A stretch of DNA of 32,000 nt from the NCBI RefSeq assembly GCF_001412615.1, contig NZ_CP013011.1, positions 1,440,001-1,472,000 of the forward strand, given 5' to 3'. Under the pieces are notes generated by a model, which was not told where the DNA came from, did no database searches, and saw only the letters and a list, made by a program, of their open reading frames with translations. Of the stretch, positions 8,637-32,000 are shown in pieces. Position numbers and translations under genes: made by a program. Within the stretch, counting starts at the first letter, position 1, and every line of letters begins with the position of its first letter. This DNA comes from Pyrodictium delaneyi. Lineage in GTDB: Archaea; Thermoproteota; Thermoprotei_A; Sulfolobales; Pyrodictiaceae.

Positions 8637-11600
8637 ATGCCGCCAGAGACTAGGCCACGTTGTGGGCCACCGCCTAGCCGTCTCCCGAGCCTGACTGGTA
8701 CTGACGCCCGGCTCCTTGACGAGTACCTGCCGCCGTTGCCTAGTAGGCAGAGGGTCTACCAGCAAGTCGCCGAAGCGCTCAACGAGATGGAGAAGAGCCA
8801 GGACCCGGTGCTAGTGCTCCTCGTGGCCGAGTGGGGCGAGGGGAAGACGAGCATCTACAATGCGCGGGTGAAGCCCTGGCTGGAGGAGAGGGGCTGGAGG
8901 AGCCTAGAAGCCCGCGCTGCCACGGTAATGGCTCATCTCGCCTCGCTGAGGAGCCGTAGCGAGCGCGACCCAGCGTACCGGCTTATGGCCGCGCTGCTCG
9001 CCGCCGGACTCGAGCAGGAGGGCATGCTGGCAGAGCACGGGGCTCCCGATGCTGCTGGGAGCCTCCGGGAATACGTGGATCGTGTCCTCCGCAGCCTCGT
9101 TCCCCGTGGTGGGAAGCTGATAGTCTTCATCGACGAGCTGGAGGACCTCGTGGCCTCGGCCCGGGAGGAGGAGCTAGCAGAGCTAGTCGCCGGGCTCGTT
9201 GGGATACTCAATGGGGACGTCGAGACCGTCTCTGCCCAGTGCCGTGGAGAGGGCTGCATGCCCGGCTCCTTCCATATAGTGGCTAGCCTCACGCCGCCGG
9301 CCTACAGCAGGCTCATGGGTCTCCGCGACTTCGCCACCGTGGCAGCGAGGCTGCGGAGGAGGATACGCAGCGTCTGGATACAGCCACTACCCCGCCGTGA
9401 GGCTTTCGCCTTCCTCGAGAGCCTCGCCCGCTACACGCTCGGCCGGGGGCTCGACGGGCTACTCGAAGACCATAGCCTCGCCCACGCCGTGGTCTCTGGC
9501 ACCCTGGGGAACATGGGGGCGCTCGTCTCGGCGTTCAGGTACCTCGTCTCCTGGGCCCGCGGCCGTGGAGGCTGCGGCGACGGCGTAGCAGTGCTCTCGA
9601 CTGGCGATCTACTCGAGGCATTGCAGGGACTCACTCTGAGCGTTGGGGGCGCCGAGCTGCCAGCCCTCAACAGCGAGGCCTACGCACGGCTAGCCGAGGG
9701 CTGGGGGGCGCGGGCCCGGCTAGCAGGCTTCGACACTGCCGCCGCCCGGAGGCTGCTAGACGAGCTAGTCGCGCGGGGCACTGTCCCTGTCGAGGAGCTG
9801 GCCGTAGCCATTGGGACCCGACTGAGCGTCGTGGCCGAGATGGTGCAAGAGCTCAACGTGTACGGTGAGCAGTCATGGCCGCGCCGGGAGCTAGGCGTAC
9901 AGAGGCTCGTCCATGAGGTCGTGGAGGCTCCAGCAGTCGAAGACGCGTTCAAGCTGCTAAGGGCCGTGGAGCCGGAGGCTGTTAAGCTCCTCCCCCAGCT
10001 GGCTGGAAGGGAGGAGCAGAAGCCGCTAGAGCAGCTACTCGACTCCCTCGTGTACCTCGACTCGGCTGGCCGGCTCGTAGTAGCGGTGCCCGCTGACGAG
10101 CGCATGGCAGCCGACCTAGTGGCGGACGCGTCGCCGCTAGAGCTGAGCCGCGCAGAGGCCGAGAGGCTCGCTGCGCTGCTGTGGGAGGGCATCTTCTCCA
10201 GGTTGCTGGGCTCCGGTGGTGCCCGGGCCTACATGCTCTCGCCGAGGCTCCAGCGTCTACTCTACGTGAGCCCCGAGCTGAGCTACCTAGACTTCATAGC
10301 TGACCGTGTCGAAAGGCTGCAAGTGATACGCCGCGTCTACACCGAGGCAGGCCGAGGCCACCTAGCAGTAGGTGTCTCAGCCCTCCTTGCTGCAGAGGGG
10401 CTGCTGGCAGAGCCGCCAGCACTGCAGGGCGAGGGCGTCGCACGCGCTGAGCTAGTCCTCCAGGGTGGTGCCCGGGCCAGAGTACTCGTCTATGCTGTGC
10501 CGGGCGAGGTAACCGCCGCGGAGGCCCGTAGACTAGAAAGCCAGGTCATGGCTGCACTCATGAGCGGGTGGCGGCCGCACGCGATACTACTAGTACACCA
10601 TGGCGGAGTGGAGCCGCAGGCAAGGCGGCTCCTAGACGCGCTGGAGGGCAAACTCTTCCTAAAGGTGGTAGAGGCCCCGATAGAGTCAATGGTGTCCCGT
10701 GCCCGGCTCCAGGCTCTGGGCGTCAAGCTCGCCGACGAGGCTGGCGGCGTAGAGGAGGCCCTCCGTGCCGCGGTCGAGGCGGCGAGGGACCCGGGGAGGG
10801 CCGAGGAGTTCGGCTTCGACCCGTTGAGGCTCCACTCGCTGCTACGGGAGCTGGCTGAGGAGATACGGCCCCGGGAGAGGCTGGAAAGAGCGCTAGAGGA
10901 GGGCATAGACGGCGCGCCACTAGTGGTGCGGGACCCCCGCCTAGGCTATGACGTGGAGAGGCCTACCGAGCTTAGCGGCGCACTCCGCTACTTCCTCGTA
11001 GTGCCTAGCACCCGTGCATCGGCTCGGGAAGCGCTCCACGCTGCCTACGAATACGTGATGCGGTATCATCTCTACCGGGGCCCCGGCGGCGAGGGCCGGG
11101 GCCTACTAAGCCCGGACATTGACCGCGGCGAGACACAGACCCTGGAGAAGTATATGCTTCTACTAGCCGCCAACGGGTTCCTCGAGAAGAGCAACGGCAC
11201 AGCGAGAATAGACACGTTGAGCCCTATGGAGCGTAGCGTGCTCCGGGCACTGGAGCAGCTCGGCGCCCGTAGCCAAGAGGTCCCCGCATCCAGGGTCTGG
11301 GAGCTGCTGGTAGTGGAAGCACGTAACCCGGGCACTCGGAGGATGCTGCTACAGGCGCTGGCCCACCGCGGCCTCGTGTCCGCTGCCGCCTCGCGGAGGA
11401 TAGACCCGGAGCGCTCCCGGCTAAGGCTACGTGACGGCGAGGAAGCCGCCTGGCAGCTAATACGCGAGGCCCGGGCCATTGTAGAGGAGATCGAGAACGA
11501 CCCCGAGGCAGCCTCCTGGGGCTATGTGGTCTCCGCTAAGGCCCGCGACTACCGCGCCGGCAGCCTAGAGGAGTTCACCCGGAAGATGTACAGCTTGCTA

Positions 11601-13067
11601 GACACAGCCGAGGAGGCCCTAAAGGCTGGCAATACACTGATGGCGCTGAGGCTTGCCCGCACAGTGCTAGACACCGCGGAGTACGTCAGGGACGAGGTCC
11701 TCCGGGGACACGTGAAGCCCGCCGCCGCCGAGGCCAGGAGGTTACGGAGCCTCCTAGAGGACTATGCGGAGAGGATAGAGGAAGCGCGCCGGGCAGCCGA
11801 AAGGATGCTCGAACAGCTGACCGGTAGCCGTGTACAGCTAGAGGTCGAGGGCTTTGAGAGGCTCCAGGAGGCCCTCCACGCGATAGAAGAGATCGAGGAG
11901 TTGCGGCTCAGCGAGAAGCAGCTAGAGGAGGAGGTGCAACAGCTCTGGGAGGAGGCCCGGCGCCGCCACCCCCGCGACCCAGGGCGCCACCTACCATTCT
12001 ACGTCGGTGGCACTGGCCCCGTGCTACACTTCAACTACAAGCTCTGGCTGCTGGCCAAGAGGCTTGAGGAGCTGGGGCTAGCACGGCTAGGCGAGTCTGG
12101 GCTCGAGGAGGGAGAGTGGCTACGCCGCACAATGCAGGCCCTGGAGACGCTGGTCAGCGAGGCCCGGAGGCTGCTAGAAGAGAGTGCTGAGCTACGCCGC
12201 CGCGCTGAGAGGCTAGCCGAGCGGCTGAGGAGGCTCGGCGTAGAGGCCCCCGCGCCGCAGAGCATCGTGCTGCAGGGGCTAAGCGCGCCCGAGAAGCTTG
12301 GCCTCGGCGAGGCCGAGCAGCTGCTCCAGGAGGCCCGGCGCCAGCTAGAGGAGGGGCGGCGCCCGCTACTGGAGCTCGAGGAGCAGGTGGACCGGCTCCT
12401 AGGCGAACTCGAGCAGCTGGAAGAGCTAGCCGCTGAGGCCGAGAGCTGGATACATGGGCTAGAAGAGGCGGCCGAGCGCGCCAGGGCAGCAGGGCTAGCT
12501 GCTAGCCAGAGGCTGCGCGAGGCCCTAGAGGACCTAGCACTGGCACTCGACCAGGCCCAGGCCATGAAGGGCAAGGCCCAGGCAGTGCTACAGCAGCCCG
12601 GCAGACTGCTAGACGCGCTCAGGGATGCCCGCAGCCTTGTCGAGAGCGCGCTCACCCTGCTACGCGACAGTCTAGAGAGGAGCAAGAGGATACACGCGGA
12701 CGCGGTAGCGGAGGCCGAGAGGCAGCGCCAGGCCCTAGAGGCCGAGGCCCAGGCGCTCCGCGAGGCGCTGGAGAGGACCGGGGCAAGGGCGCCACAGCCG
12801 CCACGCAGCAGCGACCCGTTCACCGCTATAGCTGGGCTCCACGAGTACATCGAGAAGCTGCGACGCATGGCGGCTGAGGCGGGGGTACTATCGCAGATGG
12901 AGATGGAGGCCTACCGGGTGGTGGCCCTTGAGCGTAGGAGGCGCGGCGAGCTGCTGCTACGAGAAGCAGCCGAGCTAGTAGCGGAGAGCCTCGGCATAGA
13001 CCTCGAGGAGGCTCGCCGTATACTCATAGCCCTCATCGAGAAGGAGATACTCGAGCCAAGGCTATAG
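8637..13067 (+). CDS. Very large P-loop NTPase (KAP/ORC-like AAA-type N-domain) with winged-helix-like segments and a long C-terminal coiled coil; function unknown
   Basis: Walker A VAEWGEGKTS (nt 8835-8852) and Walker B KLIVFIDELED (nt 9117-9146). An AAA-lid-like segment reads IRSVWIQPLPRREAFAFLESL. HTH-like segments include LLDELVARGTVPVEELAVAIG, SVLRALEQLGARSQEVPAS and the C-terminal LVAESLGIDLEEARRILIALIEK. Residues from about 950 to 1400 are E/R/L/A heptad-rich. Continuous codon-like coding runs over 4.4 kb. The true start could be downstream (in-frame TTG in PPLPS, or the ATG in NEMEKS). Confidence 0.8.
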   Translation: MPPETRPRCGPPPSRLPSLTGTDARLLDEYLPPLPSRQRVYQQVAEALNEMEKSQDPVLVLLVAEWGEGKTSIYNARVKPWLEERGWRSLEARAATVMAHLASLRSRSERDPAYRLMAALLAAGLEQEGMLAEHGAPDAAGSLREYVDRVLRSLVPRGGKLIVFIDELEDLVASAREEELAELVAGLVGILNGDVETVSAQCRGEGCMPGSFHIVASLTPPAYSRLMGLRDFATVAARLRRRIRSVWIQPLPRREAFAFLESLARYTLGRGLDGLLEDHSLAHAVVSGTLGNMGALVSAFRYLVSWARGRGGCGDGVAVLSTGDLLEALQGLTLSVGGAELPALNSEAYARLAEGWGARARLAGFDTAAARRLLDELVARGTVPVEELAVAIGTRLSVVAEMVQELNVYGEQSWPRRELGVQRLVHEVVEAPAVEDAFKLLRAVEPEAVKLLPQLAGREEQKPLEQLLDSLVYLDSAGRLVVAVPADERMAADLVADASPLELSRAEAERLAALLWEGIFSRLLGSGGARAYMLSPRLQRLLYVSPELSYLDFIADRVERLQVIRRVYTEAGRGHLAVGVSALLAAEGLLAEPPALQGEGVARAELVLQGGARARVLVYAVPGEVTAAEARRLESQVMAALMSGWRPHAILLVHHGGVEPQARRLLDALEGKLFLKVVEAPIESMVSRARLQALGVKLADEAGGVEEALRAAVEAARDPGRAEEFGFDPLRLHSLLRELAEEIRPRERLERALEEGIDGAPLVVRDPRLGYDVERPTELSGALRYFLVVPSTRASAREALHAAYEYVMRYHLYRGPGGEGRGLLSPDIDRGETQTLEKYMLLLAANGFLEKSNGTARIDTLSPMERSVLRALEQLGARSQEVPASRVWELLVVEARNPGTRRMLLQALAHRGLVSAAASRRIDPERSRLRLRDGEEAAWQLIREARAIVEEIENDPEAASWGYVVSAKARDYRAGSLEEFTRKMYSLLDTAEEALKAGNTLMALRLARTVLDTAEYVRDEVLRGHVKPAAAEARRLRSLLEDYAERIEEARRAAERMLEQLTGSRVQLEVEGFERLQEALHAIEEIEELRLSEKQLEEEVQQLWEEARRRHPRDPGRHLPFYVGGTGPVLHFNYKLWLLAKRLEELGLARLGESGLEEGEWLRRTMQALETLVSEARRLLEESAELRRRAERLAERLRRLGVEAPAPQSIVLQGLSAPEKLGLGEAEQLLQEARRQLEEGRRPLLELEEQVDRLLGELEQLEELAAEAESWIHGLEEAAERARAAGLAASQRLREALEDLALALDQAQAMKGKAQAVLQQPGRLLDALRDARSLVESALTLLRDSLERSKRIHADAVAEAERQRQALEAEAQALREALERTGARAPQPPRSSDPFTAIAGLHEYIEKLRRMAAEAGVLSQMEMEAYRVVALERRRRGELLLREAAELVAESLGIDLEEARRILIALIEKEILEPRL

Positions 13068-15099: not shown

Positions 15100-16719
15100 G
15101 TGCTCCTACACGGCTCAAAAACTGCAGCAATGCTAACTATAGCACTGATACTAGCCGCGTCATCAACTATGCTTGTAAAGCATTACACTACAGCAACCAT
15201 CTACGAGGATAGGTCTACTATTGTTACGGCAACTCGGCCTCTGATATCGAGAGGCCCACCGGTACTAACGATAGAGGTTAGCGACCAACAAGGAAGACCA
15301 GTAGACTTCTACGCTACGATAAGCATGCCTGCTGCCAACGGCAGTCTCATACACAGTAAGCCAGTGCGCGGTCATGGTCAAGCCACGATAGAGCTAACGA
15401 AGTACGCCGAGGAGCTATCAAGGCTGTTAGACTCGATAAACGCGGCAGGCAAACGGCTCCAAAAGATAGGGATACTAGTACTCCTAACCAGTGTAGAGAT
15501 AGAGAACGGCAAACCAGTAGTAGTCACCGATGCGTTTACCGTACCCATTAGCCTAGACGTGTTGAAGCCAGGCTACCATATAAAGGCAGTACACAAGTTC
15601 ACCCCCAAGGCCAAGACTGAGGCTAAGCAGGCGAAGCCACAGATACAGCTAGCAGCACCAAAACTAGACCTAGCCACGAGCCCCGTAGAGCCCACAGTCA
15701 ACGGACCATGCGTAGACTACGGCTTTAGCGTCACATGCTACTACTGGGAGCTAGACCAGATAGTATACCCTCCAAGCGGCGTAGACAACACCGTAAACAT
15801 GCCCTTCACAATAGTTGATGTAGCCCCAAGCAACGGCATCGACTCGCCAGCACAGAAGACAGAATCTGTGATAGTAAGTAACGTTATACGACTCCAGCTA
15901 TACACTATAGAAGAAGTAGAGATAGGGCTAGTAGTGGACTTCACACTGCTAGGCGGGTCTGTCACGATACCAGGACCAGCATTCGTAGACAGTATAAGAA
16001 ACTATGATACCTCCATCAAGACACTCCTAGACGTACAGTGTACATTCCTGAATACCCTCAACAGCCTGCCTGGGTCAAAGTGCACGCTGAATGGTATCGA
16101 TGCAGCTATCCCCGACTACTATTATGCAGCATACCTGGCTACTGGTGCTGAGGGTAGGCTATGGGTAGCAAAATATAACCTTATAGCTGAGACCTGCGAC
16201 CTGGACGGCATTTGCTACACTGAGAGTATTGGTAGCAACTATGCAGCATACTTTATACCCATCTACAATATCTTCGGGTACTTCGAACCCTACGTGGAGG
16301 TACAGGACGATTACTACAACTATGGTGGCTACCTCTACCGTGTGCTCGACGACTTAAGAAGCAAAATGGAAACAGCCACTATACTGAGCGGATACTATAA
16401 CGATAGACAATTCAACTACTATAGTGTAATCGTTGACGTGAATGGAGAGACGTACATGTCGGTATCTCTCCCCGTAGGCTCCGTAGCGGCTATAGTCTCG
16501 GGACTCAACCTGCCAATGGCTGCTACAACACTCAGCTTTACAGTAACATCTAGCGTGTACTACATTACCGCGTATGAAAGCCTATCGACTGTAACTATAG
16601 ATATAGATACGTCGGTATACCCAGGTATGCAGTATAGCAGTGAAGTCCTGAAGACCGATATGATGGTTGTACCAGATAACGGCGTCTTCACAATCCCGTT
16701 GATGGCCTTAAGACCGTGA
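15100..16719 (+). CDS. Secreted or membrane-anchored hypothetical protein (orphan, Tyr/Asn/Thr-rich)
   Basis: N-terminal hydrophobic anchor AAMLTIALILAASSTMLV. Three closely spaced Cys pairs (CVDYGFSVTC, CTFLNTLNSLPGSKC, CDLDGIC) suggest extracellular disulfides. GC is lower than the flanks. I recognise no family. Confidence 0.65.
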   Translation: MLLHGSKTAAMLTIALILAASSTMLVKHYTTATIYEDRSTIVTATRPLISRGPPVLTIEVSDQQGRPVDFYATISMPAANGSLIHSKPVRGHGQATIELTKYAEELSRLLDSINAAGKRLQKIGILVLLTSVEIENGKPVVVTDAFTVPISLDVLKPGYHIKAVHKFTPKAKTEAKQAKPQIQLAAPKLDLATSPVEPTVNGPCVDYGFSVTCYYWELDQIVYPPSGVDNTVNMPFTIVDVAPSNGIDSPAQKTESVIVSNVIRLQLYTIEEVEIGLVVDFTLLGGSVTIPGPAFVDSIRNYDTSIKTLLDVQCTFLNTLNSLPGSKCTLNGIDAAIPDYYYAAYLATGAEGRLWVAKYNLIAETCDLDGICYTESIGSNYAAYFIPIYNIFGYFEPYVEVQDDYYNYGGYLYRVLDDLRSKMETATILSGYYNDRQFNYYSVIVDVNGETYMSVSLPVGSVAAIVSGLNLPMAATTLSFTVTSSVYYITAYESLSTVTIDIDTSVYPGMQYSSEVLKTDMMVVPDNGVFTIPLMALRP

Positions 16720-26317: not shown

Positions 26318-27376
26318 ATGTCAACCAATGGGAGGAACCCCAGCAGTGGAGGGGAGCCAGAGAAGCACGAGGTAATCATAGTTGGTGCCGGAATAGCTGG
26401 GCTTACTGCCGCACTCTACCTGGCGCGGCAAGGCGTGGATGTACTAGTTGTGAGCAGGGATCTTGGCGGCCAGTTGCTCCAGGCGACACTGATAGAGAAC
26501 TACCCGGGCATAGAAGCCGTCAAAGGCGTAGACCTAGCCATGAAGGTGGAGAGACAGGCTAAGACCTTCGGCGCTAAGACAAGGTACGGCGAACAGATAG
26601 TCAAGATAGAGAGACTAGAGGACGGCACCTTTCTGCTTGAGAGCAGCCGGGGCCGCCGTTACCACGCCGAGGTCGTGATACTAGCCTTCGGCAAGACTCC
26701 CAGGAGGATGGGTGTACCTGGCGAGGAAGAGTACGATGGCCGTGGCGTGAGCTACTGCACCATATGCGACGGGCCTCTGTACCGGGGCAGGAACACTGCT
26801 GTAGTGGGCATAGGCGACCAAGGCCTAGAGGCTGTAGCATTGCTGGCCGGGCTATGCCCAAAGGTCTACTACGTCACGCCGACCAGGCTCTTCGGTGACC
26901 CTGACCTCGTAGCCAGAGTCAGTGGGGCCGAGAACGTAATAGTACTAGAGAACCACGAGCCTGTACGCGTCCTGGGCGACGGGCGCCGCGTCACCGGCCT
27001 AGTAGTACGGGACAAGAAGACCGGCGAGGAAAAGACCCTCGAGGTTGAAGGCATTTTCGTAGAGCTGGGCTACGAGGCTAAGACCGAGTTCGTCAAGCAC
27101 CTCGTCGACTTAAACGAGAACGGCGAGATAATAGTGGACAAGATAGGGAGAACTAAGACCCCAGGCCTCTTCGCTGCCGGCGATGTGACAGACATACCCT
27201 TCAAGCAGGCAGTAATCTCTGCCGGCGAGGGCGCCAAGGCTGCGCTGGCTGCGTTCAATTACTTGCAGAAGAGGCGCGGAAAGAATGTAGAGATACGTGG
27301 CGACTGGAAGAAAACCGGCGCTGTAAAGCCGAAGACGCAGCTGCGCCTAGGCCTCAAGAAAAGGAAGAACGAGTAG
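26318..27376 (+). CDS. trxB: Thioredoxin reductase-like flavoprotein (low-Mr TrxR family)
   Basis: FAD motif VIIVGAGIAGLTAALYLAR, redox-active CTICDG, and C-terminal GLFAAGDV. The NADPH motif is atypical (see findings). The C-terminal tail is Lys-rich. Confidence 0.8.
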   Translation: MSTNGRNPSSGGEPEKHEVIIVGAGIAGLTAALYLARQGVDVLVVSRDLGGQLLQATLIENYPGIEAVKGVDLAMKVERQAKTFGAKTRYGEQIVKIERLEDGTFLLESSRGRRYHAEVVILAFGKTPRRMGVPGEEEYDGRGVSYCTICDGPLYRGRNTAVVGIGDQGLEAVALLAGLCPKVYYVTPTRLFGDPDLVARVSGAENVIVLENHEPVRVLGDGRRVTGLVVRDKKTGEEKTLEVEGIFVELGYEAKTEFVKHLVDLNENGEIIVDKIGRTKTPGLFAAGDVTDIPFKQAVISAGEGAKAALAAFNYLQKRRGKNVEIRGDWKKTGAVKPKTQLRLGLKKRKNE

Positions 27377-27991: not shown

Positions 27992-28759
27992 GTGTCTGTG
28001 TCTTCGAGCCAACGTGGCCTGGGCCTATGCGTCGAGAGGCGGGAGCGGGGCAGCCTGATGAGTAGGAGACTCGAAGTGGGTGGCCCAGAGAATGTGGCTG
28101 GCAGATGTAACGCTCGGCTGGCGTTATTAGCGGTCCTGTTCTCCGCTATATCAGCTGTCTTGACGGTACTAGAGCTCATGGGTCTCACGGATAATCTGAA
28201 CTACTTGATTTTCCACTCTATTCCTCCACAGGGATCAGTATTCGTTAGGCTATTGTCTCTAACGGCAAGCGTTGCTGCATTCATAGTTTATGCCGCTATA
28301 CTTGTAGTTTACGATATTGCTAAGTTTGGTAAATTGAGGCTACAGACAGTTGCGCTAGGCATATCTTTGGCATCCTCTATGATAGTAGTTGCGGTACTGA
28401 AAGCACTATTACAAGTACCTAGACCTGGGGAACAACCTCTACATTACCCATTTCTACAGGCACTCCTAGTCTCTGATTACTACGCATTTCCTTCAGGCCA
28501 TACTGCAAGAGCGGTAGTGGCTGCATACTATATCGGGAAGAGGCAGAAGCCATACTTTAGAGCGGCTTTATGGATCTGGGCATTCAGTGTAGCAGCAAGC
28601 CGAGTACTGCTGGGTGCGCACTGGGTGAGCGATGTCATAGCTTCAACTGCTATAGGTCTCGCCACGGCACTTATAGTAGACTGTACAGCAAGGTACTGGG
28701 TGCGGGTTTACAATAAGTTTCTGGGAAGAATTAAAGTGTTGAGACTTAGCCTAGACTAG
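27992..28759 (+). CDS. PAP2-family (type 2 phosphatidic acid / polyprenyl-diphosphate) phosphatase, membrane protein
   Basis: The three PAP2 motifs are present: KALLQVPRP, PSGH and SRVLLGAHWVSDV. There are several TM segments. The probable true start is ATG 28058 (MSRRLEV...). GC is lower than average. Confidence 0.8.
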   Translation: MSVSSSQRGLGLCVERRERGSLMSRRLEVGGPENVAGRCNARLALLAVLFSAISAVLTVLELMGLTDNLNYLIFHSIPPQGSVFVRLLSLTASVAAFIVYAAILVVYDIAKFGKLRLQTVALGISLASSMIVVAVLKALLQVPRPGEQPLHYPFLQALLVSDYYAFPSGHTARAVVAAYYIGKRQKPYFRAALWIWAFSVAASRVLLGAHWVSDVIASTAIGLATALIVDCTARYWVRVYNKFLGRIKVLRLSLD

Positions 28760-28970
28760 TTCATGCGCGGATAGTTACGGGTGTAGGCCACACCGACCTG
28801 TTTATCGTTAAAGGCTAGAAAATCGTATAGGATTCACGTTTGCTTGACAACGTAGGAGTTGATATGGTGTTTGTTGTTTGCAAACCTACCGGACTCTATG
28901 CCGGGAGGAACACTAATAATCCTCTCAGGGAAGCTATTTGGTGTAGCTGACGTCTAGAGTACACTAGGCC

Positions 28971-28978
28971 TTTAAAGT
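28971..28978 (+). promoter_or_regulatory. Candidate TATA box (TTTAAAGT) for nuoA
   Basis: It lies 26 nt upstream of ATG 29004, consistent with a leaderless or near-leaderless transcript. Confidence 0.45.
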
Positions 28979-29003
28979 ACGTTGGTAAGAGAGGGGCCAG
29001 TTC

Positions 29004-29375
29004 ATGGCGTACGATGCTATAATAGCTGTTGCAGTCGTACTCACAGTTGTGCCCCTCACTTTGCTGCTTGTTTACGCGTTTCTATCCCGGGTTACCCGAG
29101 GCCCGGATCATGTTTACAAGAGACTCCGTTATGAGGCAGGTAATCCACCACGTGGAGCAGCCCGGATACCTACCATATACCAGTACTTCGGCTACATACT
29201 GATATTCGTCGCCCTCGATCCTGTCTTTATGTTGCTCTTCGTCTTGCCCGCCGCTGCAGGAGGTCAATGGCTCAAGGCAGTACTTTTGAGTATGGCATCA
29301 GTAGCCGCTATACTCCCGCCTATAGTATATGCTGCTAGGTATGCCCGCCGCCGTGAGTACTGGAGTCTTCCATAG
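29004..29375 (+). CDS. nuoA: NADH-quinone oxidoreductase subunit A
   Basis: RYEAGNPPRGAARIPTIYQYFGYILIFVALDPVFMLLFVLP matches the NuoA/ND3 core (YECG....yyl.ailFiiFD). Three TM segments. Confidence 0.85.
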   Translation: MAYDAIIAVAVVLTVVPLTLLLVYAFLSRVTRGPDHVYKRLRYEAGNPPRGAARIPTIYQYFGYILIFVALDPVFMLLFVLPAAAGGQWLKAVLLSMASVAAILPPIVYAARYARRREYWSLP

Positions 29376-29391
29376 AAGGGTGAGACGAGCC

Positions 29392-30024
29392 ATGGTTCAT
29401 GGTGACTGGAGGCGCGGGCTCATACTAGTAGGCAATCTCGAGGAAGCCGCTGAGCGGGCCGCACGCTGGCTAGTAGAGAAGACGCCGATAAGAACACTGA
29501 GGGATTGGGCCACTAGCTTTAGTCTCTGGCCCGTCCACCTTACCACGAGCTGCTGTGGAGCAGAATTCGCCGCCCTTTACGCCCCGAAGTACGATGCTGA
29601 GAGGCTTGGTAGCCTCCCCTTTACTCATCCTCGTAACACGAACCTGATGTTGATAGAGGGCACACTAACGCGGAAGATGGCACGGGTTGCCCGTATCACC
29701 TGGGAGCAGATGCCATGGCCTAAGTTCGTCATAGCTATGGGTGCTTGTGCGTTCACTGGAGGCTTATTCTACAATAGCTATAACATCGTCTTGGTACAGG
29801 ACGTGCTTCCCGTCGACTACTACGTGCCCGGCTGCCCCCCACCCCCCGAGGCTGTTGCAGACGCTTTGATAAAGCTTCAGAAGAAGGTCCGGGAAGGCAA
29901 GTGGAGGCCCCGCGACGTAGAGGACAAGGGGAAGCTGGAGGAGCTGATGCAGCCAGTCTACACGAAAGCCGAGCGTTATAGAGAAAGTGTAGTAAGCTGG
30001 AGAAGACTGCTTGAAGGACTTTAG
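29392..30024 (+). CDS. nuoB: NADH-quinone oxidoreductase subunit B
   Basis: SLWPVHLTTSCCGAEF, AMGACAFTGG and VDYYVPGCPPPPEA supply the N2 cluster ligands. The track ORF starts at 29329 inside nuoA. The ATG at 29392 lies 14 nt after the nuoA stop. Confidence 0.85.
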   Translation: MVHGDWRRGLILVGNLEEAAERAARWLVEKTPIRTLRDWATSFSLWPVHLTTSCCGAEFAALYAPKYDAERLGSLPFTHPRNTNLMLIEGTLTRKMARVARITWEQMPWPKFVIAMGACAFTGGLFYNSYNIVLVQDVLPVDYYVPGCPPPPEAVADALIKLQKKVREGKWRPRDVEDKGKLEELMQPVYTKAERYRESVVSWRRLLEGL

Positions 30025-30102
30025 ACTCGCGTTAGCTATTTGTGATTCCGCGAACTACGATGCTAGCTACCTAGCATGTAGCTTATTGGCTGAGCTGTAT
30101 CC

Positions 30103-30630
30103 TTACTCCTTTCCTTGTTCTTCTCTGGGTTTAAGCTCGGGTTTTAGCACCCATATTGGCTTGCTCTGCTTCGTCGTGGTGAAGGGCTCTTCTACTACGC
30201 GGAAGTCCTTGCGGAGTGGATACACGTTCTCCGGCCAGTCCTCGGGCAGTAAGAGGTGGCGTAGATCAGGGTTGCCCTCGAAGATTACTCCTAGCATCTC
30301 GTGCTCTTCTCTCTCCTGGAGCTGCGCCGCCGGGTAGATGTCGGCTATGCTGCTCACGCGGGGATTGTCCCGGGACACGTATACCTCGAGCGCCACTAAA
30401 TCGGATGGGTTGTCTATTCGGGTGAAGTGGTAGACTAGCCTTATCCTGCCCTGCTTGGGCTCGTCTACGGCACTGAGTGACAGGAAGTAGTTGTAGCCTG
30501 CGTCTCTCAGAGCCTCAGCTGCCTCGCGGAGCCGTTCTGGCGGCACAATTGCCGCCCTGTAGGTCTGTTGTTCTCTTACCTCGGATGCTATACCGCGTAG
30601 CAGCTCTTCAAGCTCAGGCAAGGAGAACAC
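30103..30630 (-). CDS. nuoC: NADH-quinone oxidoreductase subunit C (30-kDa subunit), encoded on the opposite strand to nuoA/B/D
   Basis: AAQLQEREEHEMLGVIFEGNPDLRHLLLPEDWPENVYPLRKDF matches the NuoC signature (ERE..dmfGi.F.GHPdlrriL...W.g.PLRKD). The plus-strand ORF 30011..30337 is nonsense. Confidence 0.85.
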   Translation of the reverse strand: MFSLPELEELLRGIASEVREQQTYRAAIVPPERLREAAEALRDAGYNYFLSLSAVDEPKQGRIRLVYHFTRIDNPSDLVALEVYVSRDNPRVSSIADIYPAAQLQEREEHEMLGVIFEGNPDLRHLLLPEDWPENVYPLRKDFRVVEEPFTTTKQSKPIWVLKPELKPREEQGKE

Positions 30631-30802
30631 CCCTAGAAGCGAGGAGACTCCGGACCCTCCCTGTGCCGCTTATTCAGCCGGCCTCTGCATTTCCTGGCGT
30701 CGTGGCAGGGTATAGACTTTAATGCTAGTGCTACGCGGTGCTGTAGCGACGAGAGTCCTCGTACCACAGACGTGTCTACACTTGCTTGATCGAGTATTTA
30801 GT

Positions 30803-30829
30803 GATTTCATCTAAAGATTTCAATCTAAA
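30803..30829 (+). repeat. Tandem imperfect direct repeat GATTTCA(A)TCTAAA x2 in the nuoD promoter region
   Basis: GATTTCATCTAAA at 30803-15 and GATTTCAATCTAAA at 30816-29, lying 26-52 nt upstream of the proposed nuoD start. Confidence 0.6.
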
Positions 30830-30854
30830 CTGAGCCCGGGGGAGTGTATCAGAG

Positions 30855-32000
30855 TTGACGACACTAGAGCTGCCGGGAATTCTAGCAAGAGAGGCTGGTA
30901 CCCGTGAGGGTTACCGTGTAGTAGAATTGTTTATCGGTGCCCAGCACCCGGCTTCAGGGCACATGAGGCTCATTGCATACCTCGACGGCGACATCGTTGT
31001 CCGCGTTGACCCGGATATAGGCTACGTACACCGCACTATGGAGAAGCTTGCCGAACAGAGAGAGTACGTACGCGTCATAAGCCTTCTGGAGCGAATGACT
31101 ATAATAGATGCTTGTAACATTACACTCCCCTACGTGGAGGCTGTAGAAAGGCTCCTCGGAGTAGAGCCTCCACCCCGAGCCAAGTACCTTCGCACGATAC
31201 TCTGCGAGATCAACCGTATCGCAAGCCACCTTTACGGTCTCGGGATAGGCGGTATATTCCTCAACCATTCGACTATGTATATGTGGGCCTTTGGGGACCG
31301 CGAGGTTTTCGTACACCTGGCCTCACTAATTACAGGCTCCAGGCTTACCCACACCTACCCAATACCTGGCGGTGTAAGGCGAGATCTCCCCCAGGTGTTC
31401 CGCGACGAGTTCGAGAAAGCTAAACGCTATATGTTACGTCGCCTCAAGGAGTACGACAAGATATTCTTTAACAATCCTGTTGTACGAGGCCGCCTCGAGA
31501 ACGTAGGTGTGTTGTCGCGGCACCGCGCGATAACGCTTGGAGCTACAGGGCCAAACCTACGTGCTAGCGGTGTACGATACGACGCTCGTCTCCTAGGCTA
31601 CGCGGCCTACGGAGAATTAGGCTACGAGCCTGTAGTGGGAAGCGAGGGTGATGCGCTAGAGCGGGTCTGGGTAAGGCTACGTGAGATAGAGGCAAGTCTC
31701 GAGCTCATAGACCGCGCTCTAAGAGAGATGCCAGAGGGTCCCATACTAGCTGAGCAGTATGTAAGACTCATACCTCCACCAATGAGGAAGAAGTGGCTAG
31801 AAAAGGGCAGAGTAAAGCTACCCGGGAGCTATGTGAGGTTGAAGACTAAGCCGGGTGAGGTGATAACTCGGGGCGAGATGGGCCGCGGAGAGGTCACCTA
31901 CTTCCTCGTCAGCGACGGAGGAGTTAAGCCCTACAGGCTACGTGTAGTAACCCCGAGCGCCCGGAACCTAGTGCTCTTCGACGCACTTGCCAGAGGTCAT
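30855..32000 (+). CDS. nuoD: NADH-quinone oxidoreductase subunit D (49-kDa subunit), 3'-truncated by the window end; not in the ORF track
   Basis: My own translation of the frame containing 30927 gives LFIGAQHPASGHMRLIAYLDGDIVVRVDPDIGYVHRTMEKLAEQREY...ERMTIIDA...RAKYLRTILCEINRIASHL...THTYPIPGGVRRDLP...PNLRASGVRYDAR...PYRLRVVTPSARNL. The frame is open from 30834 to 32000. TTG 30855 is the first in-frame start, preceded by the SD-like GGGGAGTG. Confidence 0.85.
   Translation, partial: MTTLELPGILAREAGTREGYRVVELFIGAQHPASGHMRLIAYLDGDIVVRVDPDIGYVHRTMEKLAEQREYVRVISLLERMTIIDACNITLPYVEAVERLLGVEPPPRAKYLRTILCEINRIASHLYGLGIGGIFLNHSTMYMWAFGDREVFVHLASLITGSRLTHTYPIPGGVRRDLPQVFRDEFEKAKRYMLRRLKEYDKIFFNNPVVRGRLENVGVLSRHRAITLGATGPNLRASGVRYDARLLGYAAYGELGYEPVVGSEGDALERVWVRLREIEASLELIDRALREMPEGPILAEQYVRLIPPPMRKKWLEKGRVKLPGSYVRLKTKPGEVITRGEMGRGEVTYFLVSDGGVKPYRLRVVTPSARNLVLFDALARGH

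Follow-up and report, generated by a model that had tools for sequence, protein, structure and literature searches.

The window analysed here is a stretch of 32,000 nucleotides (nt) from Pyrodictium delaneyi (NCBI RefSeq assembly GCF_001412615.1, contig NZ_CP013011.1, positions 1,440,001 to 1,472,000). Its right end carries four genes of a nuo (complex I) cluster, among which nuoC lies on the strand opposite to that of its neighbours. Among conserved prokaryotic operons the nuo cluster is a textbook case, and some bacteria even have nuoC and nuoD as a fusion. Gene identities were taken from an open reading frame (ORF) listing and a Pfam scan of the window, and the four genes were located as follows (lengths in amino acids, aa).

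29004-29375, plus strand: nuoA, 123 aa; Pfam Oxidored_q4/NuoA (2e-7).
29392-30024, plus strand: nuoB, 210 aa; Pfam Oxidored_q6/NuoB (3e-25).
30103-30630, minus strand: nuoC, 175 aa from a GTG start at 30630; Pfam Complex1_30kDa/NuoC (2e-35, 122.8 bits).
30855-32000 (window end), plus strand: nuoD, TTG start; Pfam Complex1_49kDa/NuoD (2e-66).

The convergent genes nuoB and nuoC are separated by 78 nt (30025-30102) and the divergent genes nuoC and nuoD by 224 nt (30631-30854). The latter gap would be 233 nt if nuoC starts at the alternative TTG at 30621, which yields 172 aa, the length of the protein in the type strain Su06. As to strands and both gaps, the ORFs and the Pfam matches agree with the original prediction, a note made from the letters of the window. 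nuoD runs beyond the window and was completed from the Hulk contig NCQP01000003.1 (locus L001, the window plus its continuation). There it encodes 403 aa, ends at what would be position 32066 and is the first gene of nuoD-H-I-J-K-L-M-N, all on one strand. The locus departs from the canonical operon, in which nuoA-B-C-D are co-directional and co-transcribed: the positional order is kept and the strand of nuoC is opposite. Because of this orientation nuoC cannot be co-transcribed with its neighbours, and at least three promoters are therefore needed. The earlier claims of a single-gene inversion in place within an otherwise collinear cluster, and of a broken A-B-C-D operon whose nuoC and nuoD need promoters of their own, were borne out.

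All eleven genes nuoA, B, C, D, H, I, J, K, L, M and N were found together in L001, each with its Pfam domain, and the locus is an 11-subunit archaeal complex I-type (Nuo) gene cluster. The genes of the NADH-oxidising module, nuoE, F and G, were not found among the genes called within 10 kb on either side of nuoC. NuoD contains two cysteines (positions 87 and 117) and no CxxC motif. Four cysteines are present in NuoB, C54, C55, C119 and C148, in the contexts SCCGAEF, GACAFTGG and GCPP, the first two forming a tandem pair; we take these four to be the ligands of cluster N2. The combination of a NuoD lacking CxxC with a NuoB carrying four cysteines is that of a complex I-type module and therefore not of a membrane hydrogenase. 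In the Hulk genome paper the cluster appears as "subunits A-D and H-N (Pdsh_06005-05955)", its orientation unremarked (PMC5556600), and literature searches, including full text, returned no paper remarking on the orientation of nuoC. The genes and the cluster were already known and annotated; the new part is their strand-scrambled version across the family Pyrodictiaceae.

An inverted gene could be produced by the assembler out of a really collinear nuoC. Nothing specific was found in favour of such an artefact, only that the Hulk genome is a draft (PMC5556600). Over the 11,898 nt compared, the only difference between the window and the Hulk draft contig is one homopolymer base near 27016, so that at least two sequence versions of P. 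delaneyi agree on the layout. The same layout, with nuoA, nuoB and nuoD pointing one way and nuoC the other, is shared by at least five organisms of the Pyrodictiaceae, which belong to at least three genera and are represented by at least seven independent assemblies, two long chromosome-scale records included. The orientation of nuoC is constant across the P. delaneyi and P. occultum assemblies, and both junctions lie in unique, repeat-free sequence. The layout is not a misassembly, and the idea of an assembler error is almost certainly wrong; nor does a strain-level event, which the earlier note had also left room for, fit a layout shared by this many organisms.

The one differing base falls in 27010-27020, within the ORF at 26318-27376, where the window reads GACAAGAAGACC and the Hulk contig GACAAGAAAGACC. 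The extra A in the latter splits a pyridine-nucleotide/flavin adenine dinucleotide (FAD) oxidoreductase gene into 243 and 107 aa in the deposited annotation; in the window the ORF is unbroken (352 aa, Pyr_redox_2). The additional base probably stems from an error in sequencing the homopolymer of the Hulk draft.

The loci of cultured Pyrodictiaceae were reached by protein search and exact look-up. The arrangement of the window, with nuoA and nuoB on the strand of nuoD, nuoC opposite and gcvH beyond nuoA, was found in Pyrodictium occultum (both in NCBI and in an independent Logan assembly), in Pyrofollis japonicus (AP028634.1, a 2.0-Mb record) and in Hyperthermus butylicus (CP000493.1, a 1.67-Mb record). 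It was also present in the metagenome contig L023, the sole new family locus from the metagenome scan. nuoC and nuoD are divergent in 11/11 Pyrodictiaceae-type loci that keep both adjacent, and the nuoA orthologues share 43-72% identity in all family loci. Across the family the positional order nuoN..H-D-C-B-A-gcvH-FAD oxidoreductase does not vary, and both flanks keep their strand. The strand states, given relative to nuoD, were the following for each lineage; some come from metagenome-assembled genomes (MAGs).

P. delaneyi, P. occultum, Pyrofollis, H. butylicus and L023: nuoC opposite, nuoB same, nuoA same.
Bin023 (L003, 5977-7880): nuoC opposite, nuoB same, nuoA opposite (C+, B-, A+).
Bin025 (L005, 5974-9351): nuoC opposite, nuoB same, nuoA opposite (C+, B-, A+), with an ORF between nuoB and nuoA.
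DIMAG01 (L006, 5959-7477) and S141 (L007, 5959-7478), Pyrodictium-like MAGs: nuoC, nuoB and nuoA all opposite, as a reversed nuoC-B-A operon.
4571-419 (L002, 5971-12436): nuoC, nuoB and nuoA all opposite, with a 5-kb insert between nuoC and nuoB.
Hyperthermus sp. MAG (L004): nuoC opposite; nuoB and nuoA not found within 5 kb beyond nuoC.

The original prediction had added that an inverted arrangement found to be ancestral and widespread in the clade would be real and yet not novel. The comparison with related genomes shows just such an ancestral, clade-wide layout, and not a fresh event in P. delaneyi. In DIMAG01 and S141 nuoC and nuoB overlap by 4 nt and Shine-Dalgarno-like elements stand before nuoB and nuoA; their nuoC-B-A is a re-formed, compact and translationally coupled operon in reverse order. 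In Pyrolobus fumarii (CP002838.1, L018, 6001-8251) and a relative (L021, 5001-7269), nuoD-nuoH are isolated, with ribosomal-protein and unrelated genes around them, and no nuoA, nuoB, nuoC or nuoI-N was found within 6 kb of them. This dispersal represents a further stage. The divergent upstream ORFs of the Pyrolobus type (117 and 243 aa) were considered as a diverged NuoC and rejected (no Pfam match; BLASTP E=1.1).

Several features of the surroundings differ among these genomes. A PAP2-family phosphatase gene (27992-28759, plus strand) stands between gcvH and nuoA only in P. delaneyi; nuoA directly adjoins gcvH in P. occultum, Pyrofollis japonicus and H. butylicus. In Bin025 the N-terminus of the ORF between nuoB and nuoA looked mevalonate-kinase-like by eye, and the ORFs in the 5-kb insert of L002 looked AbrB-like and PIN-like, again by eye only. 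A MazE/PIN toxin-antitoxin pair lies beside gcvH, near the nuo cluster, in Pyrofollis japonicus (L016, 10615-11294), and the neighbourhood seems to be a recurrent landing site for small mobile gene pairs (L016 and, by eye, L002). The nuoH gene of H. butylicus was called as two ORFs of 81 and 262 aa (L017, 5605-6623), reflecting a frameshift or a sequencing error.

Outside the family, nuoA-B-C-D-H.. is collinear in Aeropyrum camini and in a Desulfurococcales MAG, with overlapping stop and start codons. Trees of NuoD and of NuoB joined this Aeropyrum type and the Pyrodictiaceae with 100% bootstrap. In the genome scan, nuoC was co-directional with the adjacent nuoB and/or nuoD in all six non-Pyrodictiaceae loci (6/6). 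The metagenome scan gave 78 classifiable NuoC loci, and the 76 from outside the family (76/76) were again co-directional with nuoB and/or nuoD, which upholds the earlier statement that A-B-C-D collinearity is the norm elsewhere; the sole two opposite-strand cases were Pyrodictiaceae-like contigs. Given the collinear relatives and the co-directional loci elsewhere, the flip is a derived character of the Pyrodictium/Hyperthermus/Pyrofollis group, in which it is ancient and fixed. An inverted nuoC is rare across prokaryotes and ancestral within the family, and it is not a new molecular system. A block inversion would reverse the gene order, and this was never seen; the strand changes are therefore single-gene flips in place. 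The explanation that we favour, with a probability of roughly 0.8, is that nuoC was flipped in place in the ancestor of Pyrodictium, Hyperthermus and Pyrofollis and became fixed, and that the cluster is now most likely expressed as three transcription units, nuoAB, nuoC and nuoD-N.

The junctions of nuoC were searched for repeats (seed 7, 28760-31000), and no convincing inverted repeat brackets the gene, in agreement with the earlier note. The best flanking pair matches at 10/11 nt (30086-30096 / 30611-30621) and is one of 29 similar pairs in 2.2 kb. The 7-mer GCTTATT, to which attention had been drawn, is indeed present at both junctions (30081-30087, followed by GGCTGA, and 30668-30674, followed by TCAGCC) but carries no weight, being at chance-level frequency: it occurs 3 times in the window, the third time inside nuoB (29762), vs an expectation of 2.1, and at least 3 copies were present in 35 of 100 shuffles. 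A perfect inverted pair of 11 nt (30592-30602 / 30729-30739) was set aside, as a rough estimate puts it at about chance in 2.2 kb and no predicted transcript includes it. Among the genes called within 10 kb on either side (L001), none matched a recombinase or transposase family of Pfam. Insertion sequence or transposon traces (transposase, terminal inverted repeats, target-site duplications) were absent from 28760-31000 and from the neighbouring genes. No trace of the flip mechanism remains; the inversion is ancient, so such traces could have decayed.

These results bear on the proposal that nuoC, or the operon downstream of it, is controlled by a programmed invertible element, a switch resembling phase variation. 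A single gene between two intergenic regions would suit such an element, and nuoA and nuoB do occur in both orientations among relatives. However, neither flanking inverted repeats nor a recombinase called within 10 kb was found, the orientation of nuoC is identical in every family genome examined, and the differences in nuoA and nuoB orientation separate lineages of about 20-45% protein divergence, not strains. A switch is accordingly highly improbable.

The flipped nuoC is a functional, expressed gene. Its ORF is intact, and 27 columns are invariant among 18 family members, including the QEREEHEMLG and PLRKDF regions. The orthologue in Su06, the type strain, is Pyrde_1474 (UniProt A0A0P0N3L7), which belongs to the same 90% cluster as the NuoC of the window; its annotation as "chain J" presumably uses the plastid name, NdhJ, of the same subunit. 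Pyrde_1474 was detected in 8/8 P. delaneyi proteome samples at about 16-40 units (PMC8105010 supplement). The same table gives 170-395 for NuoB and 57-209 for NuoD, both listed alongside Pyrde_1474 together with NuoH and NuoI; NuoK and NuoL appear in it as well, with NuoA unquantified (PMC8105010 supplement). The C-terminal 30 or so residues (30103-30190) consist of a conserved tail, TKPSKPxWxLKPELKP, and after it an end that is charged or rich in Gly. This tail lies past the Pfam domain and is missing in the Aeropyrum-type NuoC and in the aligned distant archaeal homologues; possibly it arose once the 3' end of nuoC had been freed from its overlap with nuoD.

It could be argued that the inverted gene is a decaying or redundant copy and that the working 30-kDa subunit comes from a second Nuo/Mbx-like cluster (Pdsh_06660-06630). 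The genome does hold such a cluster, with B-D, L-N and I subunits (PMC5556600), and the proteomic signal of NuoC is below that of NuoB or NuoD. Yet the intact ORF, the strong Pfam score and the invariant positions across the family contradict decay, the protein was found in all proteome samples, and nuoC is kept beside nuoD in 11/11 family loci that keep nuoC. We leave this explanation only a very small chance.

The intergenic regions around the four genes were inspected for candidate expression signals, and the following elements were recorded. We infer the promoter and ribosome-binding-site positions, and with them the number of transcripts, from these motifs.

28971-28976, plus strand: TTTAAA, putative TATA box of a leaderless nuoA-nuoB transcript, at -33 to -28 from the nuoA ATG.
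29378-29383, plus strand: GGGTGA, Shine-Dalgarno-like, read from the sequence 8 nt before the nuoB ATG.
30025-30102, no strand: convergent spacer of 78 nt between the stops of nuoB and nuoC.
30060-30077, in that spacer: hairpin ATGCTAG-CTAC-CTAGCAT with a 7-bp stem.
30628-30633, minus strand: GGGGTG, putative Shine-Dalgarno-like element, 6 nt ahead of the alternative nuoC start (TTG).
30631-30854, no strand: divergent intergenic region of 224 nt shared by nuoC and nuoD-N.
30669-30675, minus strand: GAATAAG (cttattc on the plus strand), weak putative TATA-like candidate for nuoC, at -39 to -45 from GTG 30630.
30718-30723: ATTAAA, alternative candidate box for nuoC.
30795-30801: TATTTAG, upstream of nuoD.
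30803-30815 and 30816-30829, plus strand: tandem 13/14-nt repeat, GATTTCATCTAAA and GATTTCAATCTAAA, of the pattern GATTTCA(A)TCTAAA.
30824-30829, plus strand: second TCTAAA of the tandem repeat, at -31 to -26 from the nuoD TTG, candidate TATA box of a leaderless nuoD-N transcript.

With these elements the proposed course of events can be described. The ancestral flip of nuoC in place would have left the cluster no longer a single operon. The first unit would be nuoA-nuoB, read from the TTTAAA box, whose position suits the archaeal distance between TATA box and transcription start, and with the Shine-Dalgarno-like element before nuoB. An element of the GGTGA type, as found there, also stands before nuoJ, L, M and N, which are internal genes, and GGGTGA would thus mark nuoB as an operon-internal gene; Shine-Dalgarno-like elements are present only before internal genes and before the TTG of nuoC. 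The second unit would be nuoC alone, transcribed leftward from the divergent spacer. An A/T box stands 24-53 nt upstream of nuoC in most relatives, and in P. occultum GGAGGTG lies ahead of a TTG start. The third unit, nuoD-H-I-J-K-L-M-N, would be transcribed rightward from the same spacer, with TCTAAA at the position given above. Both TATTTAG and the tandem repeat, named in the original prediction as possible nuoD signals, are present upstream of nuoD; the second TCTAAA sits where an archaeal TATA box of a leaderless mRNA is expected, and the promoter role of the repeat is still that of a candidate. The repeat was not seen in the spacers of P. occultum or the other relatives compared. The Nuo subunits would then be assembled post-translationally, as usual. 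No Rfam family was found in the window at the gathering threshold, and none in 29950-30900 at E<=1.

Downstream, just outside the window, the otherwise tightly packed nuoD-N genes are interrupted by an 89-nt gap with a TTTTATAA box between nuoJ and nuoK (L001, 6415-6503). P. occultum, Pyrofollis and H. butylicus likewise have a gap there, of 103, 106 and 42 nt respectively. The gap could be an internal promoter.

A number of observations speak against the picture of an in-place flip followed by three transcription units. The model and its promoter assignments are built on short A/T motifs, which occur by chance, and the intergenic sequences are unconserved between genera. A divergent nuoC/nuoD spacer of 108-278 nt is found in all family loci, its sequence likewise unconserved, and in P. 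delaneyi itself GAATAAG is a weak promoter candidate for nuoC. The nuoB/nuoC spacer varies in length, P. occultum having 14 nt, Pyrofollis 98 nt and H. butylicus 513 nt. Its fold in P. delaneyi gave z-scores of -1.7 on the plus strand and -2.6 on the minus strand, and an oligo-T tract is absent from it on either strand. Given this lack of an oligo-T run, and a spacer of just 14 nt in P. occultum, read-through, overlapping convergent transcripts and antisense overlap are possible. The spectral signal of NuoC is about 3- to 10-fold below that of NuoB or NuoD (PMC8105010), which might reflect a real difference in dosage or mere detectability.

To these is added the NuoC tree (134-column alignment), which gives 2% support to the clade of Pyrodictiaceae and Aeropyrum type that receives 100% in the NuoD and NuoB trees. 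Unresolved as it is, it formally admits a xenologous displacement, in which the collinear nuoC was lost and a foreign nuoC was inserted in the same place in the opposite orientation. Pyrodictiaceae NuoC shares 35-37% identity (91-93 bits) with the Aeropyrum type and 33-46% (87-102 bits) with very distant NuoC; for NuoD and NuoB, by contrast, the Aeropyrum type is clearly the nearest (54-59% identity). On the other hand, no donor candidate is visible, as nothing outside the family exceeds about 46% identity. NuoC also evolves faster: identities within the family are 53-74% for NuoC vs 72-85% for NuoD, and extrapolation leads one to expect about 35-40% at the distance of Aeropyrum. In addition, the branch of the Aeropyrum-type NuoC is long, and this protein has lost the EDWPxGVYPLRKDF motif common to Pyrodictiaceae and distant archaea. 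Because of this long branch and the motif loss, the incongruence looks like rate variation, and displacement is improbable, if less so than the switch.

If nuoC was flipped in place, as we favour, it was not the last gene of the segment to turn. On a neighbour-joining tree of NuoD+H the strand states point to several independent flips. Since support for its deep nodes is weak, the claim was limited to at least three flips in total. The strand pattern itself is observed. It was considered whether the nuoA-nuoB-nuoC segment is a hotspot of recurrent single-gene flips, the flip of nuoC having created a convergent nuoAB/nuoC conflict and later flips of nuoA and nuoB having been selected as resolving it. 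We regard this as rather unlikely, and both the conflict-resolving selection and a dedicated flip mechanism are speculation; if true, it would be a case of stepwise, gene-by-gene re-orientation of an operon. A local mechanism, conflict-resolving selection and simple tolerance may each account for the nuoA and nuoB flips. As for nuoC, we think that the flip is a tolerated and probably neutral rearrangement in a lineage whose genes readily carry their own promoters, and not a regulatory device.

Elsewhere in the window, two large ORFs on the plus strand (8637-13067, 1476 aa, and 15100-16719, 539 aa) matched nothing in Pfam at E<=1e-5.

As an example of how operons evolve, the inverted nuoC is a modest curiosity. 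It shows that the gene of a core subunit can stay on the opposite strand over long evolutionary time and still be expressed; in these hyperthermophiles, at least, assembly therefore does not require co-transcription of the Q-module genes. The family offers a small natural series for the break-up and re-formation of an operon, from collinear genes through nuoC flipped, nuoC and nuoA flipped, and nuoC, nuoB and nuoA re-operonised, to the dispersal in Pyrolobus. It is also useful for studying the tolerance of convergent transcription. For annotation and synteny-based operon prediction, the Pyrodictiaceae nuo cluster should not count as one transcription unit.

The closest known system is the canonical archaeal nuoABCDHIJKLMN cluster of Aeropyrum camini and the Desulfurococcales MAG. 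Its eleven subunits and their positional order are those of P. delaneyi, and nuoE, F and G are missing from it as well. The NuoD lacks NiFe-binding cysteines and the NuoB has four cysteines, the tandem pair included, in both, and the two proteins are phylogenetically sister to those of P. delaneyi. The P. delaneyi cluster differs in the opposite strand of nuoC and in the family-specific C-terminal tail of NuoC (SKPxWxLKPELKP...). Moreover, the B/C and C/D junctions of the collinear relatives are overlapping and translationally coupled, whereas P. delaneyi has a convergent gap and a divergent gap in their place. Pyrolobus fumarii resembles the other Pyrodictiaceae in having lost the single nuo operon, but it did so by dispersal, in contrast to the in-place flipping in Pyrodictium, Hyperthermus and Pyrofollis.

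Small or single-gene inversions in place are known from yeasts and other genomes as a class of rearrangement. The likeness is that one gene between its intergenic regions switches strand while the neighbours keep order and orientation; the Pyrodictiaceae case differs in lying inside a prokaryotic operon that is among the most conserved and in recurring for three adjacent genes (nuoC, then nuoA and nuoB). In cyanobacteria and plastids the ndh set is split, with ndhC-K-J apart from ndhH and ndhA-I-G-E. There too the subunits come from several transcription units and still form one complex; the ndh loci, however, are dispersed, whereas the Pyrodictiaceae genes keep their place and only the strand changes.

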